A stretch of 64,000 nt of DNA from Candidatus Aminicenantes bacterium. Its GTDB lineage: Bacteria > Acidobacteriota > Aminicenantia > Aminicenantales > Aminicenantaceae. Shown here piece by piece: positions 30,452 to 64,000 of this stretch (its first letter is position 1; each line of letters opens with the position of its first letter). The notes below the pieces were generated by a model. The model searched no databases. It was not told the origin of the DNA and saw only the letters and a program-made list of their open reading frames with translations. The stretch lies in the NCBI GenBank assembly GCA_011049545.1, contig DRHQ01000069.1:11180-75179 (forward strand), in the 5' to 3' direction. Made by a program: the position numbers and the translations under genes.

Positions 30452-31765
30452 ATGTCTAAAGAAAGAAAAACCGTTCTTCTCGTATCTTTTCTTATTTTGG
30501 CGCTTCTTCCCGTTTTGTCTGGAAAGGAAGAGACGCCTTCTATTCTCAGTATGCGGGAAAGAAATGCCGTTGTTAATAACTGGTTAAAAATTCGCCTGGA
30601 AACAGTTCTTCCTGAACTGATGAGGCGGGAGAAATTTGATATGTGGGTAGTTATCTGTCGTGAGTACAATGAGGACCCTGTCTTTTTTTCCTTGGTCCCA
30701 TTTAACTCCATCGCTGCTCGTCGTCTAACAATGCTAGTCTTTTATGACAGGGGAAAAAAAGGTATGGAAAAGCTGGCTGTTAGCCGTTACGGGATCGGAG
30801 ATTTTTACGAAGGAGTATGGCAGCCTGATAAAATTGAGCAGTGGGAATGCCTGGCAAAGGTAATAAAAGAACGAAATCCCAAAAGAATCGGGATAAACGA
30901 GTCTGATACATTTGCTTTTGGTGATGGTCTCTCATCCTCATTGAAAAAAAAGCTTCTTCGAATTCTTGGACCCGAATACTCTTCGCGACTTCATTCAGCA
31001 GATGAACTTGCTGTCGGGTGGCTGGAGAGGCGAATACCCGAAGAGCTTGAAGTCTATCCCCATGTTGTAGCCATAGCCCATCAAATCATCACCGAAGCTT
31101 TCTCCCGGGAAATCATCACGCCAGGGGTGACGACAACTCAGGATGTCTCCTGGTGGATCAGGGAAAGGTTCCGGGAGCTGCGATTGAGCAACTGGTTTCA
31201 TCCTTCCGTGTCTTTACAGCGCTTTAAAAAAAGCAATAATAATGGAGGTGTTATCTTAAGAGGAGATCTTTTGCACTGCGACATCGGAATAACTTATCTC
31301 CGACTTAACACAGATACGCAGGAACACGCCTATGTCCTGCGGGAGGGAGAATCTGATGCTCCTCGTGGCTTAAAAGAGGCGTTGAAGCTGGGAAATCGGC
31401 TCCAGGATATTTTGATCGGGGAGTTCAAGGAGGGAAGAACCGGAAACGAAATTCTTGCTGCTGCTTTGAAAAAAGCCAAGGAAGCTGGCCTGAAAGCCAG
31501 CATCTACAGCCATCCCTTGGGCTTTCATGGTCATGCAGCAGGACCAACCATTGGCCTGTGGGATAACCAGGTTAACGTACCTGGAAAAGGAGATTACCGC
31601 CTCAACTATGACACCTGCTATGCAATCGAACTGAACATCAAAACAAACCTTGAAGAGTGGGGAGGTCAGGAAGTTCGTATTGCTCTGGAGCAGGATGGAA
31701 CCTTCACCAGGAAAGGAGTATACTTCATTGACGGACGTCAGACCAAACTCCACATCATAAAATAA
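30452..31765 (+). CDS. Secreted M24-family (Xaa-Pro) aminopeptidase
   Basis: GGAGG RBS then ATG at 30452; signal peptide; HCDIG...NTDTQ, HPLGFHGH, AIEL, LEQD ligands. Confidence 0.88.
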   Translation: MSKERKTVLLVSFLILALLPVLSGKEETPSILSMRERNAVVNNWLKIRLETVLPELMRREKFDMWVVICREYNEDPVFFSLVPFNSIAARRLTMLVFYDRGKKGMEKLAVSRYGIGDFYEGVWQPDKIEQWECLAKVIKERNPKRIGINESDTFAFGDGLSSSLKKKLLRILGPEYSSRLHSADELAVGWLERRIPEELEVYPHVVAIAHQIITEAFSREIITPGVTTTQDVSWWIRERFRELRLSNWFHPSVSLQRFKKSNNNGGVILRGDLLHCDIGITYLRLNTDTQEHAYVLREGESDAPRGLKEALKLGNRLQDILIGEFKEGRTGNEILAAALKKAKEAGLKASIYSHPLGFHGHAAGPTIGLWDNQVNVPGKGDYRLNYDTCYAIELNIKTNLEEWGGQEVRIALEQDGTFTRKGVYFIDGRQTKLHIIK

Positions 31766-55974: not shown

Positions 55975-57257
55975 TGAATCACGTCGACTCTTTGGCCGTC
56001 TTTGAGCCCTTCGATTCCAACTATTACGATGACTTCGCCTTCATTCAGCCCTTCTGTCACTTCTACGTGATCTTCCTCGAGTAGGCCGAGAAAGACCTCG
56101 CGCTGAGACACTTGGCGCCGATTCAGAACAAAGACATAACTCTTGTTCTGCTTGTAAAGGATTGCTTTCCGAGGAATAATCAAGATGTTCTCTTTCACTC
56201 CGATGGCTATCTGGACTTTCACGAACATCCCCGGTTGCAGACGGAGGGAATTGTCAAAGATCTCGACGGTGACTTTGACTGTTCCGGTCTCGACATCGAT
56301 CCGAGGGTTGATAAGCTTGACCTTGCCTTCGAACCTTAATCCCTTAAGAATATCGGTGGTCACTTCCGCGGACATACCAAGAGCGAGATTGATAGCATCA
56401 GACGTGGGGACGTACACACGGATAAGCAAAGGATTGAAATCTTCGATCGTATACACCTGCGTGTTGGCGTTAACGCGATCTCCGGCTTCGATGAGCCGCT
56501 CGGTGATATAGCCTTCGGAAAGTGCCCGAATTTTAGTCCAGTCCAACTGGAGATTGAGATTATTGAAATTCTCCATACGGCTCTGGTACTCCAACTGGCT
56601 TTGCTTGAACTGCGCTTCGGTAGCCTGGAAATCCTGTTCGGAAACGAGCGAGCGCTTGACAAGCTCCTGACTGCGGACGTAGTTATTTTCTGCTTCCTCA
56701 AGATTTAGTTTGGCCTGGTCCAGTTGGATCTTTGCCTGGTTGTAGCTGATCATGATTTCCTTATCATCGAGTTGGGCCAGGACATCATTTTCTTTGACGT
56801 AATCTCCTTCCTCCTTCACGATCTTCTTGACATAGGCGGAAAGATGAGAGTAAATCTCGACTTTCCTTTCGGGGTCGACGATGCCGTTGAGGACGAGGTA
56901 GGAGTTCAGATTTTGGCGCTGGATAGGCATCACGCTCACTGGGATTGCCGCACTTCCACCACCCTTAAATCGGGCAATGATCCGCGGGATCTGGTCCTTC
57001 GGGATGCGCCCTGATTTTATGGCCTCTTTCATGTGGTCGGGAATATCAAGCTTATCGACATCGATCTCTTTGCCATCCTGAGATTTGGCTCCAGGCTTTT
57101 GGCCAGGCCTGCCTTTATTATCTGGATTTTTCTCAGCCTGTTGTTTTTCTGCCGGCTTCGTCCCTTTGTCCATGCTGCCGTCGCCCGATTTTCCACAGCT
57201 CACAGCAAGAGCCAGGAATGCGATCAGTATGATGATGGTTAATTTTCGCATAATCAC
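55971..57257 (-). CDS. RND membrane-fusion (periplasmic adaptor) lipoprotein
   Basis: Lipobox LAVSC; hairpin coiled coil; INPRIDVETGTVKV, LQPGMFV. Confidence 0.94.
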   Translation of the reverse strand: MIMRKLTIIILIAFLALAVSCGKSGDGSMDKGTKPAEKQQAEKNPDNKGRPGQKPGAKSQDGKEIDVDKLDIPDHMKEAIKSGRIPKDQIPRIIARFKGGGSAAIPVSVMPIQRQNLNSYLVLNGIVDPERKVEIYSHLSAYVKKIVKEEGDYVKENDVLAQLDDKEIMISYNQAKIQLDQAKLNLEEAENNYVRSQELVKRSLVSEQDFQATEAQFKQSQLEYQSRMENFNNLNLQLDWTKIRALSEGYITERLIEAGDRVNANTQVYTIEDFNPLLIRVYVPTSDAINLALGMSAEVTTDILKGLRFEGKVKLINPRIDVETGTVKVTVEIFDNSLRLQPGMFVKVQIAIGVKENILIIPRKAILYKQNKSYVFVLNRRQVSQREVFLGLLEEDHVEVTEGLNEGEVIVIVGIEGLKDGQRVDVIQ

Positions 57258-57659
57258 TCACTTAACGATACATAATAAATTATTTTTCGCGGTACATTTT
57301 CTCTTACCAGCTCGGTTATTACGGTAACTATCTGAACTCCTTAATTTTTCACTCCGTTCTTCTTGAACAGGTAGAATTGTACTCTAAGCAACTTACATAT
57401 TTAGACGAAAAGGGTCGTAATTTCTTCCATAATTTTATCTATAATTTATATATAATTTATAATATAAAATTCAGCCTTCTTATACAAATCCCTTTAGACA
57501 GTCAAACCTTCCTGATCTTATCCGCCCGGTTTGGGGGGGGGACCTGTCGTAAATCTTCTTCTATCATCGGGAGATTATTATCTTCTTAGAAAATGTAGAT
57601 GCTAATAGAAGTGCATTCTTGTCCCTGAGGTATGAATGCCGCTTTGGATCTATTTGCAG

Positions 57660-57763
57660 GGCAATTGACCTTGCCGTTTTGGGTGTGATATGTCTATTTT
57701 AGGGCGTCATCCAGTGAAAATTGCAGAGAATTGCGAGGGATTTGCGGCGAGCACAAAAAGCAA
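57660..57763 (+). repeat. ~104-bp non-coding direct repeat, copy 1 (possible IS terminus)
   Basis: GGCAATTGACCTTGCCGT(T/C)TTGGGTGTGATATGTCTATTTTAGG...TTGCGAGGGATTTG(C/T)GGCGAGCACAAAAAGCAA; second copy at 62395-62498. Confidence 0.85.
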
Positions 57764-57815
57764 TTTCTTAGATGATGATGTGATGCAAGTCCTTTCTTTA
57801 ACGCCTCCTTTCTTT

Positions 57816-59915
57816 TTATCTCACTTGAATTTCTGAGCTTATTTGAGATTTTGATTTAGTTTTTAGCTCTTCTACAGTCAGGTTTAAAAAGTACTTCCCG
57901 GGCTGTAATTCAGGAGTTTGAAACTCGATTAAAAGTATAGATATTTCTTCTTTCTTTTTGGTTGGTAGAGTAGAAAATGATAATGGAATTTTTAGTCCAG
58001 AAGAAGGCTTAGTAAGACTGGCGGAAAGGTGAAATTCAGGTTCTCGGATATCAATAATTGTATAACGCATCACAGCTAAAAGTTTCGATATACCCTTATT
58101 TAATTCCTTAACAAGAGGTGAATATTGATTAGGATCAAAAGGATATATATCAAATAAATTGGTTGATTTCCCTTGCTCTTCATTCTTCTTTGTCGATAGC
58201 TCTTTTAAATAAGAAGCGTTTTTTTCAGGAACAAGCAATAAAGGCGGATAGAGTATCACCCCGGATTCAGGAGCCTCGGAGATGAAAACTGATGAAGAAG
58301 CAACCGCTCCTTTTCCTGTCTCGAGGTCTCTAATGACGATCTTGCAATCATATTCGCCAGGAGAGAGAGATGAAGTGGCATAATAGAAGACATTACCCTT
58401 GGCAAATTTTGATGAAGTGACTTCATCCCTGTTAAACTTGACTATTTCATTTTGATTATCAAAGATGAGAGTAACAATCTCTACCTTCTTTCCTGCAATT
58501 TCTTTTATTTTTTCTGCGGGTATTTCTGTAAGCAGGAGAAGCTTTGATTTTTCTTGAATAGAATAAGGCAAGGTGATCAAAGGAAAATGGAGTGGTTCCT
58601 GAAAATGAGGTCTATCGCTTAAAGCTAAATCGATGAGATGGAGTAGCTTTTCTGTTTCCGTGTATTCAGTAAAAGGCTTTGGGTTGAAATATCCTCTCTG
58701 ACCGGAGACAATGTATCCTTTTCTTTTGACTTTGACTTTTATTTTGTGATACTTACCGTCCCATTTTTTATCAATATAGTATCCTAAGACATAATAGTTG
58801 CTAGTTACACGCTGAATCTGTTCTATAGCCTTCTTATAATCCATTGAATTGCTAAAGTATTTTCCACCTGTCGTCTTGGATAACTGTCTTAATGAGCTGT
58901 CTCCCATCATATCTCTACTCCCAGGACTTATTCTAAGTTTTGGTCCTTCTACGTTCACTGCGTACACCGCGCTATTCGATGCAGCCAATTCTTTGGTCAT
59001 TCTTTCGTATATTGTGCGCAATAAAACAGATCCATATCGATCCTCCTTAGAATCAAGCATCCCCTCTGGCAAACGTCTTCCATATAATATAAAATCAGCA
59101 ACTCCTTTCGAAAAGAGAATAATATGTTTATAACCAGGAATGTAAATAAGAGATCTAGCAAAATTTATTATCTCAGAGCAAAATCGAGACACATCATGTT
59201 TATAAGCTCTTTTCTCGGCTATCCTTATATTCCTTTCCATTCTCTTATCCCATCCACCTGTTAGCCCACTTGATTTATTTAAGTTAAGGTCCTTAGGGCT
59301 GACTTGCTCGATAGAACCGGAAGTAACATCTTCCAATCTCTCTGCTCTTCCGAAAACATTTCTCAACCCAAGTCCTTCTACAATCTGGCGAACCTTTTGA
59401 TAGTCGGTAGTAAGATATTCATGAAGAGTTAAACCTTTTCTTGCAGAGTAAGAAATAACACTTATCTCATCGGTCGGATGGAGCTGGGTGTCGATAAAAT
59501 ATAAAGCTGCCTTCTTTGATTTCAAGATCCCCTGGGTGCTATTAAAAGCAAAATCAAAGAAAAGAAAAAACTTACGATTCATTCGGGAGGGAGTTTCTGG
59601 CCTAGGAGCTGGCTTTATCTCTTGTGCTTTTTTCTCAGGCAAGGTTAAGATGTGTTTTTCAAATTCTGTAATTTCTACAGGCTTACGATTATCGTAAAGC
59701 TCAAAATCAGACTGAGTTAAATCTGTAACAGGCTTTCCTTTCTTATCAGTCACATAAACATGAATTAATTTTAAAGTTACAGTGACTTCATACTGAAGAG
59801 ACTCTTGCTTGTCTGCAGTTTTTTTTGTTTGAGGAAGTAATGGTTCAATAAAGATGAGTTGAGAAAAGAGAAAAAAATAAATACAAATTCTGATAACGAG
59901 ATTGCCCTTAAGCAT
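57816..59915 (-). CDS. Secreted VWA-domain protein (Acidobacterial VWFA-related type)
   Basis: Signal peptide; VTVTLKLIHVYVTDKKGKPVTDL, FFDFAF, LSKTTGG, YYVLGYY, GYFNP. Own promoter TTGCAT-N17-TATAAT at 59961-59933. Confidence 0.85.
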   Translation of the reverse strand: MLKGNLVIRICIYFFLFSQLIFIEPLLPQTKKTADKQESLQYEVTVTLKLIHVYVTDKKGKPVTDLTQSDFELYDNRKPVEITEFEKHILTLPEKKAQEIKPAPRPETPSRMNRKFFLFFDFAFNSTQGILKSKKAALYFIDTQLHPTDEISVISYSARKGLTLHEYLTTDYQKVRQIVEGLGLRNVFGRAERLEDVTSGSIEQVSPKDLNLNKSSGLTGGWDKRMERNIRIAEKRAYKHDVSRFCSEIINFARSLIYIPGYKHIILFSKGVADFILYGRRLPEGMLDSKEDRYGSVLLRTIYERMTKELAASNSAVYAVNVEGPKLRISPGSRDMMGDSSLRQLSKTTGGKYFSNSMDYKKAIEQIQRVTSNYYVLGYYIDKKWDGKYHKIKVKVKRKGYIVSGQRGYFNPKPFTEYTETEKLLHLIDLALSDRPHFQEPLHFPLITLPYSIQEKSKLLLLTEIPAEKIKEIAGKKVEIVTLIFDNQNEIVKFNRDEVTSSKFAKGNVFYYATSSLSPGEYDCKIVIRDLETGKGAVASSSVFISEAPESGVILYPPLLLVPEKNASYLKELSTKKNEEQGKSTNLFDIYPFDPNQYSPLVKELNKGISKLLAVMRYTIIDIREPEFHLSASLTKPSSGLKIPLSFSTLPTKKKEEISILLIEFQTPELQPGKYFLNLTVEELKTKSKSQISSEIQVR

Positions 59916-60038
59916 TTTTGATTCCCAACTTTATTATATAAAAGCTGTAAACTTCATGCAAAGCAATATCAGATTATGCCAAAAGCTTGAAATCGCTTTT
60001 TTAATCAAGTGGCAAATTTTCGCCTCTAGATTAGTTTA

Positions 60039-60065
60039 AGCTAGCTCATCTTAGACTTGTTAGCT
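60039..60065 (-). other. Degenerate/truncated attC site after relE
   Basis: R'' AGCTAAC 3 nt after the relE stop; only 13 nt to GCTAGCT, so the inner stem is lost. Confidence 0.45.
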
Positions 60066-60068
60066 GGC

Positions 60069-60404
60069 TTATAATTTAACATCTAGAACTCTTTTCAGAA
60101 GAATATCTTCAATATTTTGCCTAGAATCCAGAACAGCTAAAACATATACTTTGGCCTCTTGTACCCTGTACATTAGTCTCCATGGAGCTACCATTAATTC
60201 ACGGTATTGATAAATTCCATTTTCTTGCAACTCAGGAATGATCCGACCACGTTTAGGCGAATGATTAAGATTTGCGGCCTTTTCCTTTAATTTATTTAAT
60301 ACTTTTAGCGCATTCGCAGGACTGTTATTGGCTATATATTCAATTATTCTGGCAAGATCATTTTCTGCAATGCTGGCCCAAATAACTTCATATTTATTAT
60401 TCAC
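60069..60404 (-). CDS. RelE/ParE-family toxin
   Basis: YEVIWASIAENDL, PKRGRIIPEL, YRELMVAPWRLMY, VLAVLDSRQN; 8-nt overlap with the antitoxin. Confidence 0.92.
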   Translation of the reverse strand: MNNKYEVIWASIAENDLARIIEYIANNSPANALKVLNKLKEKAANLNHSPKRGRIIPELQENGIYQYRELMVAPWRLMYRVQEAKVYVLAVLDSRQNIEDILLKRVLDVKL

Positions 60405-60675
60405 TTTTCTTCAATTTTTTCTTAAGATTTGCGAATACTTCTGCTTGGGGTTTGGTTTTACCTTTTTTAATTTCCTCCTCGCTTTGAGCTATCAATTTAA
60501 GTAGGCCTATGGCATTTCTCATATTCTCATAGCTCTTGGGGTCTTGCAAAACTGCTTTAGGCTCACCGTTTTGAGTAATAATCACAGGTCTATGCGTGTC
60601 GTTAATCTGTTTTAATAGATCAGCGGCTTTAGATTTAAGGTAAGTGATAGACTTTATATCTTCTGAAATGTTCAT
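60397..60675 (-). CDS. Phd/YefM-family antitoxin
   Basis: IKSITYLKSKAADLL, RPVIITQNGEPKAVL. Own promoter TTGATA-N16-TATCAT (60724-60697) overlapped by a GGTC...GACC inverted repeat. Confidence 0.92.
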   Translation of the reverse strand: MNISEDIKSITYLKSKAADLLKQINDTHRPVIITQNGEPKAVLQDPKSYENMRNAIGLLKLIAQSEEEIKKGKTKPQAEVFANLKKKLKKSE

Positions 60676-60746
60676 GTTTAAACCTCCGGTCTTTTTATGA
60701 TACCATATTTAGACCGACTATCAAGTTCTTTTTATCAAGGTTTGAC

Positions 60747-60817
60747 AGCTAACGTCAAAATCGCCTGCTTTTATGAAGCATAGCGGAATTAAAGTCAGGT
60801 GCATTATATTGTTAGCT
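60747..60817 (-). other. attC site (71 bp)
   Basis: AGCTAAC-aatataatgcacctgacttt...aaagcaggcgattttgac-GTTAGCT. The methyltransferase stop TAA lies inside R''. Confidence 0.85.
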
Positions 60818-61369
60818 CTTTTTCAAAACTGCTGTTTTGCTAAGAAGCACCTTCGGCCTTTCTACAAGTGTAAGTCCTACGTTTCGGGCTTGGCTGATAG
60901 TTTCTTCAAAGGCCGACTTTGATACATGGAATGGTGGTTCTACTACGAGAACTTGCCCTTTGGGTTTGAGTATTACTCCTATCTCATTAAAAAACTCTTC
61001 TTGATTGGGAACTTCGTGTACCACATAGAAAACTAGAACAAAATCAATCTCCTCTGATACGCCTATTTTGTTCTCTTCGCATTTATGAAGTGTGATACGT
61101 TCCTCAAGTTCAGTTCCCTGAATCTTGTCTCTTAGCTTTTGAAGCATCCCTTCCTGCAAATCAGCAGCAATAACTCGACCGGATTTGCCGACCATTCGAG
61201 CCATTTCAATAGAGAAAAAGCCTGGACCACAACCCAGATCAAGGACTGTCATCCCTTCTTCAATATAGGGTCCCACTATTTTATGAGGGTTTTGTAACCA
61301 TCTTCGAATTCTGTTATCGAGCCTGCCCGCTCTTTCAACCGGGCATACACGCTTGTTTCCATCGCTCAC
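60812..61369 (-). CDS. Class I SAM-dependent methyltransferase (gene cassette)
   Basis: VLDLGCGPG, AADLQ, VVHEV; AAGGAG RBS with GTG start; flanked by attC sites. Confidence 0.92.
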   Translation of the reverse strand: MSDGNKRVCPVERAGRLDNRIRRWLQNPHKIVGPYIEEGMTVLDLGCGPGFFSIEMARMVGKSGRVIAADLQEGMLQKLRDKIQGTELEERITLHKCEENKIGVSEEIDFVLVFYVVHEVPNQEEFFNEIGVILKPKGQVLVVEPPFHVSKSAFEETISQARNVGLTLVERPKVLLSKTAVLKKS

Positions 61370-61389
61370 TATACTTTTCTCCTTTCAAA

Positions 61390-61447
61390 GGCTAGCGGCT
61401 GCAAATAACCTGCGCTGAAAGCGTCGGGTTAATTTGCATTGTTAGGC
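61390..61447 (-). other. attC site (58 bp)
   Basis: GCCTAAC-aatgcaaattaacccgacgc-tttca-gcgcaggttatttgcagcc-GCTAGCC; imperfect hairpin with unpaired bases; R' is GCT rather than GTT. Confidence 0.85.
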
Positions 61448-61550
61448 CGTACATTTTTAGGTCATAAACTGTTGATTTTAATTATAACTTATATGCAATG
61501 ATTCCAATACTTGTATTGAGTTCTGATACAAATTGGTATTAGGTTTATTT

Positions 61551-62012
61551 TTAATTCCACATGACCCGGAAAAATTTCCAGGAGTTGTTGGGTTGCTTCC
61601 TTAAAATCATTAATGATATGCCAGAAGAAATAACCGGTTCTGTTGATCCCACCAGAATCGCTGAAAACGAATATTTGACCAATGCATAAGCAATGTCACC
61701 GCAACCATCTATCTCCATAATTTCAGGTGTGAAAGATAAGACCGTATCAATGGCTTCTAAACCTAGCTGAATAGCTTTTCTGCCTTGAATCGGATCACCA
61801 CCTGGTGGAAATCTAATCGCATCTTCAGTATAAAGAAGAGCATCTGCGGCCCAATCGGCAGAAAGAGCGTTTTCATCATGTGATTTGAAAAATGAGTGAA
61901 TACTGGCAATATCCTGATCAGACAATCCATTAGTATCAGGATTAGGTCTTTGGCAAGCGATGAATATAATCATTACAAAAATAATTGTTAGTGTAATGCT
62001 TCGATGTAACAT
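61551..62012 (-). CDS. SnoaL/DUF4440 (NTF2-like) lipoprotein (gene cassette; start moved from 62099 to 62012)
   Basis: GGAGG RBS; signal ending FIAC; LYTEDAIRFPPGGDPIQGRKAI, LRKQPNNSWKF. Confidence 0.85.
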   Translation of the reverse strand: MLHRSITLTIIFVMIIFIACQRPNPDTNGLSDQDIASIHSFFKSHDENALSADWAADALLYTEDAIRFPPGGDPIQGRKAIQLGLEAIDTVLSFTPEIMEIDGCGDIAYALVKYSFSAILVGSTEPVISSGISLMILRKQPNNSWKFFRVMWN

Positions 62013-62053
62013 CTCACCTCCAAACAAGCTTAATTTAAAAATGCCTTTATGCG

Positions 62054-62123
62054 GCCTAACATATATTACACAGCCGTTTTGCTTGTGCAAATACGGCATT
62101 TAGCGCAGTCTATTGCGTTATCC
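62054..62123 (-). other. attC site (70 bp) closing an ORF-less mini-cassette
   Basis: GGATAAC...GCCGTATTTGC-acaa-GCAAAACGGC...GTTAGGC. R'' is the exact complement of the preceding GTTATCC boundary (62147-62141). Confidence 0.65.
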
Positions 62124-62215
62124 AGTTTGAACGAAGCAGGGGATAACTTATTGAATATAATCCGTCTTGTCGGAACAATCCACTTTTTGCCGTTTATGTT
62201 TTGCAGCATTTCTTG

Positions 62216-62296
62216 CTGTCTAAACGGATGTTACCAATATTACCGGTCAAAATCAATATTGCTTTCTGCGATTCTAAGAGGTGGATTTATTTCAAT
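62216..62296 (-). promoter_or_regulatory. Putative Pc promoter/attI-like element, copy A (points into the cassette array)
   Basis: TTGATT-N17-TAACAT with TGn, then GGTAAC-atccg-TTTAGAC; 73/81 identical to the inverted copy at 63600-63680. Confidence 0.55.
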
Positions 62297-62394
62297 CTGA
62301 AACTGGGTTGGGAAATTTTTTTTTCTGAATGGTGGGTGGAGTCTATCTTATTGTTGACCGTTTTGCTGTCTTTGTTGCTTTGTCTCTGTTTTTT

Positions 62395-62498
62395 GGCAAT
62401 TGACCTTGCCGTCTTGGGTGTGATATGTCTATTTTAGGACATCAGCCGGTGAAAATCGTGGAAAATTGCGAGGGATTTGTGGCGAGCACAAAAAGCAA
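62395..62498 (+). repeat. ~104-bp non-coding direct repeat, copy 2
   Basis: Same element as 57660-57763. Confidence 0.85.
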
Positions 62499-62636
62499 AT
62501 TATTATATTTTTAGGAGCTGGCTTTTGTTATTCGGATTGGTCGTTTAACGGGCTGGATTTCCTGCGGACGCAGACTCGCAGGATGGCCAAAATATCTGAA
62601 AGCAGAGGACAAAATGAGTAATAAAAAGGAGGAAAA

Positions 62637-63504
62637 ATGAAAAAGAAGATTATTCTTGTGTGTATGACTTTCTTTCTCATGGCATTTGTTGCCAGAGCAG
62701 AGAAAGGACTCAAAGTGTTTATCTCCGTAGACATGGAGGGTGTCGGAGGAGTCATTCATTGGGAAGATGTCAGCCGGAACGGCAAGGATTATTCTCTCTT
62801 TCGCAGGCTGATGACAGACGAGACTAACGCAGCCGTAGAAGGGGCGCTTGAGGCCGGAGCCACTGAGATTCTTGTGCGGGATTCTCATGGAAGCGCGCGC
62901 AATATTCTTCCTGACCGACTCCATCCTGAGGCTATACTTCTCAGGGATTGGTCGGGTGGCCTCCTGAGTATGATGGAGGGGATTGATGAGACCTATGATG
63001 CTGTGATCTTTGTTGGCTACCACGGCCAGGGAGGGCACACCTAATGGCGTGCTCAAACACACTATGACCGGCACCATGGATGTTTTTATCAACGGGAAAA
63101 ACATGCCAGAAGCCGGAATCAACGGCGCGATTGCCGGGTATTTTAATGTCCCAGTGGTTATGGCAGCTGGCGATCTAGCTTTCGTCAAACAGGCCCAGGA
63201 GCTTTTCCCCGGAGTGAAGTGTGCGGCTGTCAAGGAAGGAATAGGTAAGGCAGCCAAAATGCTCCATCCCACAAAAGCTCAGGAGATGATAAAGAGGAAA
63301 ACCAATGAAGCCCTAACAAACCTTAAAAAATTCAAACCTTTTAAACTCACCACTCCCATCACCATGGAAATCCGCTACAAGGATGAAAACGATGCAGCCA
63401 AAATTTCCTGGTTCCCGGGAGCCAAACGGACAGGAGAGAGGACAGTCGCTTACACTCATAAGGACTTCATGGAAGTCCTGAAATTCTTCATGTTCGCCGA
63501 GTGA
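62637..63504 (+). pseudogene. dppA: D-aminopeptidase DppA (peptidase M55), split by a +1 frameshift
   Basis: ISVDMEG, DSHG, GYH; an extra G at 63024-25 (CACGGCCAGG) breaks GYHAREGTPNGVLKHT, which resumes in ORF 63010-63504. Confidence 0.88.
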
Positions 63505-63599
63505 AAAAAGAGTGATATCAGCTTAATTTTGGTGATGATTTTTTCTTGGTCTAAAATTTTGGAATGTTTCGGATTTTAGGGAGGTACTTCAAGTCCAGT

Positions 63600-63680
63600 A
63601 TTGAAATAAATCTATTTCTTAGAATCGCAGAAATCAATATTGATTTTGACCGGTAATATTGGTAATATCCAGTTAGATAG
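63600..63680 (+). promoter_or_regulatory. Putative Pc promoter/attI-like element, copy B
   Basis: TTGATT-N17-TAATAT with TGn, then GGTAAT-atcca-GTTAGAT (GTTRRRY core at 63672-78). Confidence 0.55.
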
Positions 63681-63725
63681 TGAGTAGTTCGGCGTAAGTT
63701 ATTTTAAAGCAAGGAGAAAATAGAC

Positions 63726-63830
63726 ATGGGTGACAAGGGAAAAAAAGATAAAGGAAAAAGGGAACATCAGAAAAAAGCCAAGCTTAGTCCAAAGGAAAAA
63801 CGAAAATTGAAAAGAGAAAAGAAGGAATAA
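63726..63830 (+). CDS. 34-aa highly basic small protein (absent from the ORF track)
   Basis: AAGGAG RBS; MGDKGKKDKGKREHQKKAKLSPKEKRKLKREKKE*; first ORF after the GTTAGAT core. Confidence 0.65.
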   Translation: MGDKGKKDKGKREHQKKAKLSPKEKRKLKREKKE

Positions 63831-64000
63831 ATGCCCAGTGCTGTCCGGTGACCTTAAACCAAGCACGGAAGTTGTGGACCAGTTACCTGATTAAAAACGG
63901 AAAAGCCAGGTGAATAGGATGTGTCGTTTGGCTGCGGGACGGAAAAAGCTAGCATTCGAGAATTCAGCGTAGAGAGTGTTTGTTAAGTTATTTATGATAA

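Follow-up and report, generated by a model that had tools for sequence, protein, structure and literature searches.

We analysed a stretch of 64,000 nt (the window) from the genome of a Candidatus Aminicenantes bacterium (contig DRHQ01000069.1, positions 11,180 to 75,179). At 60054–62299 it holds a short integron-type cassette array, headed by a non-coding module and lacking an integron integrase gene (intI). The genome (G000) is a metagenome-assembled genome (MAG) of 161 contigs with a completeness of 89.7%, and the window lies on its contig C69. All units of the array are on the minus strand, where they read in the order module, cassette 1, cassette 2 and cassette 3. The array is bordered by an RND efflux operon on one side and by a small conserved open reading frame (ORF) on the other, both here and in the closest relative (G001, 93% identity). 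A preliminary description of the window, made from the sequence letters, had proposed an integron relic, a cassette array without integrase. This was correct, and the genome holds in addition an intI pseudogene on another contig, C47.

Cassettes and attC sites

The array starts with the module (62054–62299, core 62054–62237), which is conserved and present in many copies. Cassette 1 (61396–62059) carries one gene (ORF 61551–62012) and its own attC site of 58 nt (61390–61447, GCCTAAC...GCTAGCC). The gene product is DUF4440/NTF2-like (Pfam), and its translation has a signal peptide and a Cys, making it a putative lipoprotein. Cassette 2 (60753–61395) encodes a 185-aa class I S-adenosylmethionine (SAM)-dependent methyltransferase (ORF 60812–61369; Pfam Methyltransf_31/25/11), followed by an attC of 71 nt (60747–60817, AGCTAAC...GTTAGCT). 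Cassette 3 (60054–60752) has two genes, phd/yefM (60397–60675) and parE/relE (60069–60404), and ends with an attC stub of 12 nt, AGCTAACAAGTC (60065–60054), which begins three bases past the parE stop. The two proteins matched PF02604 (PhdYeFM_antitox, 63.7 bits) and PF05016 (ParE_toxin, 62.5 bits), and their genes overlap by 8 nt. Being adjacent, overlapping small genes from both Pfam families, they form a type II toxin-antitoxin pair. The gene contents were thus as first described. No resistance genes were present in the array, and an Rfam scan of 57000–64000 recovered no family.

The attC sites were searched with two covariance models, neither of which included window sequence. The first (R1) was built from five aligned sites with R''-L''...L'-R' anatomy around the C47 intI, located by a crude structural scan and a motif scan. 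The second (R2) was built from 48 sites of several phyla. R1 was run over the 64-kb window with filters off. It matched 60747–60817 with 34.9 bits (E 1e-6 in the window, 5.7e-5 genome-wide) and 61390–61447 with 22.4 bits (E 0.0027 in the window). R2 gave 30.3 bits (E 1.8e-5 and 9e-4, respectively) for the former and 19.9 bits (E 0.009 in the window) for the latter. Beyond these two sites, R1 had no match in the window at E<1, and no other match reached E<0.8. Genome-wide, the matches clustered around the integrase on C47 and at the window locus. R1 was confined to these two places, and R2 found the C47 arrays, the window locus and two singletons (C59:1236-1310 and C83:62215-62270, with 36.2 and 25.5 bits). 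As a positive control, R1 detected arrays beside intI in other phyla (e.g., L035). In a Steroidobacteraceae MAG, it recovered eleven sites of 88 nt upstream of, and divergent from, intI. The attC structure itself was supported by covariation, with 82.7% of cells paired, versus 27–38% when the partners were slid, and with compensatory changes in 10 of the 12 L-stem pairs.

The structural scan, made with a hand-written R''/L''/L'/R' scanner, produced 336 matches genome-wide and missed both window sites, being too strict and too noisy; it brought out the C47 arrays that seeded the models. A weak palindromic model match at 30723–30785 lies within a 444-aa ORF and was therefore attributed to chance.

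Folded as single-stranded DNA, the bottom strands of both sites formed an R stem, an internal loop and an L stem, with two bulges on the 3' arm. For 61390–61447 the fold had −14.2 kcal/mol (z −3.7) and a bulged T and A; for 60747–60817 the z was −1.8, with a bulged T and C. At both sites the second bulged base differs from the canonical G. The cores of 60747–60817 fit R'' (RYYYAAC) and R' (GTTRRRY), including the invariant AAC/GTT, and in 61390–61447 the R' has GCT where GTT is invariant. Neither site is accompanied by a terminator-like T-run. In comparisons with relatives, the breakpoints coincide with the G|TT cores. We conclude that 60747–60817 and 61390–61447, located ~570 bp apart, are genuine attC sites.

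Both of these hairpins had been recognized in the preliminary description, which had listed further ones. Its hairpin at 62123–62054 was matched by neither model, has no R-box stem and represents the 3' end of the module. From its decayed site at 60065–60039, only the 12-nt AGCTAACAAGTC is attC-derived; the rest is not, and the fold was no better than that of shuffled sequences (z +0.63). Of the pairs of complementary boundaries, GTTAGGC/GCCTAAC and GTTAGCT/AGCTAAC are exact, GCTAGCC/AGCTAAC agrees in 5 of 7 positions, and GTTATCC/GGATAAC is a hairpin inside the module. The left edge of cassette 1, TTAGGC, complements its own R'' (GCCTAA), and homology with G001 resumes at this edge, at 62054. 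Its far edge is set by the start of the methyltransferase cassette, which is shared with the contig L094. The methyltransferase stop TAA (60814–60812) lies, as noted earlier, inside the R'' box AGCTAAC (60817–60811).

Cassette 2 was found in other genomes as well. Its methyltransferase had more than 5,000 homologues, with more than 100 clusters at 77–94% identity; the sources included MAGs labelled Elusimicrobiota, Planctomycetota and Deltaproteobacteria. The cassette recurred with identical edges in L094 (95.7% nucleotide identity), L095 (an Elusimicrobiota MAG, 84%) and L097 (a Deltaproteobacteria contig, 81%), the homology to the window spanning the predicted cassette start to R''. In all three, the attC match begins 5 nt before the end of the gene, as in the window. 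In L095 the gene lies within a run of attC matches, beside a BrnT/CopG pair, and in L097 beside an RHH/PIN pair, followed by two attC matches. Overall, it stood next to toxin-antitoxin pairs in two of the four contexts fetched. The unit therefore fits a widely travelling cassette, with a methyltransferase of unassigned substrate. Where the window has GCTAGCC and AGCTAAC, L094 has GTTAGCC and GGCTAAC, an exact pair. The window pair is therefore an exact pair with two point changes, one of which destroyed the invariant GTT of the first attC. L094 itself, an ENA contig of 4903 nt, repeats with a period of ~2.9 kb (Aminotran_5, the dispersed repeat D1, the cassette, a small ORF and a dppA fragment), which could reflect a tandem duplication, or a circular or collapsed assembly.

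The module and the missing integrase

By a DNA search in 40 relatives, the module was recognized as a dispersed repeat (~190–245 nt) in at least eight related genomes, often with several copies in each. From eight relatives, 21 copies align up to ...TATAATATATGTT(A) or ...GGCTGTATAATATAT GTT(A), and then diverge fully. In the window, the 3' end reads ...GGCTGTGTAATATAT G|TTAGGC, which would place the crossover between 62060 and 62059. The module has two internal hairpins. The first is GTTATCC...GGATAAC (62147–62117, with GTTATCC at 62147–62141 and GGATAAC at 62123–62117), and the second is GCCGTATTTGC/GCAAAACGGC (62097–62072). Since the first was recognizable at one fixed position in most of the 21 aligned copies, it is not the cassette boundary pair that had been proposed. 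We also considered the 184-nt unit 62054–62237 as a single long attC (TGGTAAC...GTTAGGC). It folded into separate local hairpins instead of one long one, and this reading was rejected.

Weak promoter-like boxes face the cassettes at two places in the module, TTGATT (62256–62251) with TAACAT (62233–62228), and TTTGCA (62091–62086) with TAATAT (62068–62063). In most module copies a TATAAT box lies upstream of the crossover G, starting 11 nt and stopping 5 nt from it. Cassette 3 has its own promoter-like site at 60724–60697 (TTGATA-16-TATCAT, with a TG). The cassette genes are probably transcribed from the module and from this site of the toxin-antitoxin pair. For the module we only infer expression, because the boxes in the window stay under the promoter-scan threshold.

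In five of seven module copies, the junction 7-mer (GTTATCT, GTTAGGC twice, GTTATAC and GTTCTGC) and the R'' of the first attC downstream were exact reverse complements, and in the other two they matched in 6 of 7 positions. A circle with an attC that recombines at G|TT would leave such a footprint, and therefore we read the module as an attI-like primary site, with putative IntI binding. Its neighbourhood in relatives points the same way. In G006, from the same genus, two inverted module copies flank an intact IntI of 353 aa (464 bits against TIGR02249), and behind each copy come a single cassette and a strong attC, oriented accordingly (52 and 41 bits). In this locus (L072, 1277-3945; G006 C18:4500-9500), one cassette encodes a cupin-like protein and the other a protein without assigned function. 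In G001, an IntI tail of 58 residues ends exactly at the module start, and in G016 a similar tail adjoins one of the copies (G016d). The module thus borders intI or its tail in three genomes, but not in the window. It is not unique per genome, with several copies in G016 and G020.

No IntI was encoded in the window, as stated in the preliminary description, nor elsewhere on C69. A search with TIGR02249, the family of integron integrases, had no match on C69 at E<=10, and tblastn with IntI gave E>2 in the window and nothing on the rest of the contig. Compared with G001, only the last three codons and the stop of intI are recognizable in the window, at about 62295–62287. Searching the whole genome with TIGR02249, as had been recommended, returned one gene above the cut-off, on C47 (C47:23301-24500; 403 bits, cut-off 265). 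It has an in-frame TAA, and its product is only 47% identical to the G006 IntI located between window-type modules. The surrounding C47 region (C47:16234-30564; L009, L010) is a two-armed integron. Its intI is flanked by ~150-bp inverted repeats ending in GTTAGCC, and attC arrays extend to the left (minus strand) and to the right (plus strand), each with at least five sites. The left junction GTTAGCC matches exactly the R'' of the first attC (GGCTAAC). Surveying the order, we obtained IntI-like matches in 17 of 121 genomes. Only six genomes were above the cut-off and many of the matches were fragments or had stops, and therefore integrase decay is common in this lineage.

The place occupied by intI or its tail in relatives is taken in the window by other sequences. 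An inverted repeat of 94 nt, with arms 85% complementary to each other, has its left arm at 62203–62296, overlapping the 5' part of the module, and its right arm at 63600–63693. Between the arms lie the D1 repeat and a dppA-like gene with a frameshift, at the position of the IntI tail in G001. The dppA-like gene encodes a D-aminopeptidase (Peptidase_M55; 62637–63504, plus strand), and its frameshift results in two ORFs (62637–63044 and 63010–63504). In L094 more of it is deleted, and G001 lacks it. To the right of the right arm, no attC matches were found up to the contig end, and there is no cassette array. The right arm lies upstream of a small Lys-rich ORF (MGDKGKKDKGKREHQKK...; 63717–63830, plus strand), conserved at the DNA level in several relatives. 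We also noted a direct repeat of 114 nt (57660–57773 and 62395–62508, 89% identical), from a dispersed family with copies on C51 (two), C129, C56, C125, C44 and C14, and in many relatives. It resembles a promoter with a leader (TTGACC-17-ATATGT). One copy precedes the dppA-like gene, and another points into the 3' end of a VWA-domain gene.

Formation and decay of the array

The comparison across relatives, also called for earlier, showed no fixed synteny for the array genes. They are missing from the closest relative, or else reappear elsewhere as cassettes of other arrays, and the refuting condition set in the preliminary description was thus not borne out. G001 lacks the window region 57540–62053, and its homology resumes exactly at GTTAGGC, so that it represents an empty site. 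The most distal cassette is shared between G000 and a congener, G005, the stretch 60054–60789 being 95% identical to G005 C219. There, the phd-parE cassette sits behind a different cassette (attC R'' GTATAAC) and ends with a full site of 70 nt. Beyond this site lies the IS91-transposase fragment that in G001 comes immediately after GTTAGGC. Towards the module, G000 carries two further cassettes. An empty G001, a distal cassette common to G000 and G005, and additional G000 cassettes next to the module form the order predicted by insertion at attI. The homology between G000 and G005 ends at 60054, which leaves just 12 nt of the last attC in the window. The rest of this attC and the IS91 fragment are replaced by 57540–60053, which carries an Acidobacteria-type VWA gene (TIGR03436) and a repeat.

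Our proposed scenario is as follows. An IntI would have inserted circular cassettes, folded as single strands, one after the other at the module G|TT (62060/62059). Each cassette would therefore begin with the TTRRRY of its own attC and end with that attC. The newest cassette (DUF4440) would be the one next to the module, and the oldest, the phd-parE cassette also carried by the congener, the one at the far end. The subsequent decay, at three places, is shown by the relatives. The intI adjacent to the module was lost, with the repeat and the frameshifted dppA-like gene now in its place. The R' core of the first attC mutated from GTT to GCT. The last attC was cut after 12 nt, by a replacement that brought in the VWA-domain gene. 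The array would now be essentially frozen.

In line with this scenario, we consider it highly probable that the locus represents one arm of a sedentary chromosomal integron after loss of the integrase gene, and that it now forms a largely frozen cluster of attC sites lacking an integrase (CALIN). In the window, two attC sites lie less than 4 kb from each other, and no intI is near them; an intI adjoining attI and array, as in a complete integron, is not present. Because the attI-like head (62054–62299) was retained, we interpret the locus as an intI-deleted integron arm, and not as a stray cassette cluster.

Several points weigh against this interpretation. The attC models are home-made and their E-values rough, and 61390–61447 scores only about 20–22 bits, with a GCT in its R'. 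The promoter boxes of the module are weak in the window, with 8 of 12 matches. The junction GTTAGGC of the window is identical to the empty-site sequence of G001, and therefore the junction rule is less informative here than in the other copies. The difference between G000 and G001, a comparison of two genomes, could reflect either an insertion or a deletion. Finally, C47 and C69 might come from different cells, because the genome is a MAG of 161 contigs, and the stop in the C47 intI might be an assembly error.

The strongest alternative is that the array is still active, a working reservoir from which an IntI encoded elsewhere, on C47 or on an unassembled copy, excises and reshuffles cassettes in trans. 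CALINs are common in genomes encoding IntI and are thought to be usable in trans (PMC4889954). Moreover, the assembly lacks about 10% of the genome, the genus includes a member with an intact IntI of matching type (G006), and both the attC at 60747–60817 and the module G|TT are intact. However, the sole intI detected in this genome contains an in-frame TAA, with a product only 47% identical to the G006 IntI, the first attC has GCT for GTT, and the last one is truncated. With these two defective sites, at most one composite excision product is expected. Given a working IntI in trans, the DUF4440 and methyltransferase cassettes could leave jointly, by recombination of the module G|TT with the attC at 60747–60817. 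We therefore consider an active array improbable.

Still less probable is that IntI inserted the cassettes at a secondary chromosomal GTT site, the module being a mere promoter or leader repeat that ends in GTT. Such insertion is a known route to CALINs (PMC4889954), the module is multicopy, and one G016 copy lies inside an array, with no adjoining intI remnant. Two observations contradict this. The module is found directly 3' of intI or its tail in three genomes (G006, G001 and G016d), and all copies examined have their cassette junction at one and the same nucleotide, in agreement with the attC R'' rule, as at a dedicated primary site.

That the hairpins are ordinary terminators or repetitive extragenic palindromic (REP)-type repeats, resembling attC by chance, is hardly credible: short inverted repeats are common and two of the hairpins first listed (the third and fifth sites) are not attC, but independent covariance models pointed to exactly two sites (E 1e-6 to 9e-3), no Rfam family or T-run accompanies them, the same cassette occurs in attC arrays of other phyla, and the breakpoints fall on the predicted crossover.

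Relation to known integrons

Aminicenantes are abundant uncultured bacteria of sediments. Our literature search found no published description of integrons for them, and nothing relevant on two-array integrons. The window documents genuine integron cassettes, exactly delimited, for this lineage. The relatives offer snapshots of successive stages, with G001 empty, G000 and G005 sharing the oldest cassette, and G000 as the decayed end state. In addition, a small SAM-methyltransferase cassette travels between phyla at about 80–95% identity.

Two aspects are less ordinary, the attI-like module and the layout with two arms, which occurs in G006 and on C47. Tentatively, and with slightly less than even confidence, we suggest that the module represents an undescribed, lineage-wide attI family. 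Its members would have a promoter-like box abutting the crossover, would be multicopy and sometimes located inside arrays, and would also form mirror pairs around intI. In such pairs, one integrase would serve two diverging arrays, as in G006, with another type of site on C47. The window would then be a decayed example, with dppA where intI was. The module offers a concrete substrate for testing the choice of primary sites by integrases other than those of class 1.

A CALIN is a cluster of attC sites lacking an integron integrase; among the origins proposed for it is a complete integron whose integrase was lost (Cury et al. 2016, PMC4889954). The window resembles a CALIN in its two model-supported attC sites, its cassette genes on one strand and the lack of intI nearby, and integrase loss explains it most simply. 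Unlike a CALIN that is a displaced fragment, it keeps an attI-like head, which brings it nearer to an integron minus intI. It also differs from a typical CALIN in having one attC core mutated and the last attC truncated.

With sedentary chromosomal integrons whose integrases have decayed, for example those of Xanthomonas, the window array shares a fixed chromosomal position in the genus. Further similarities to sedentary chromosomal integrons are attC sites resembling others of its own genome and relatives, and a cassette content differing between close relatives. Like the Vibrio superintegron, it carries a toxin-antitoxin cassette. Such cassettes stabilise Vibrio arrays, and by analogy the phd-parE cassette may stabilise the array in the window. 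Unlike sedentary integrons with decayed integrases, the array has only three cassettes, and its intI is wholly gone, not just inactivated. The lineage is also different from that of the Xanthomonas and Vibrio integrons, the Aminicenantes being Acidobacteriota-related.

The module is comparable to the attI1 of class 1 integrons, with its Pc/P2 promoters. Like attI1, the module would be a dedicated double-stranded site beside intI (in relatives), which ends in G|TTRRRY and at which cassettes are inserted, and it may likewise drive transcription. Upstream GTTA-type boxes in the module may be additional IntI binding sites, as in attI1. The module has no similarity in sequence to attI1 and, unlike it, is located on the 3' side of intI and oriented like the cassettes (G001, G006b and G016d). 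Mirror-image pairs of the module can surround intI, some genomes have several copies, and a conserved TATAAT-like box stands 5 nt from the crossover.

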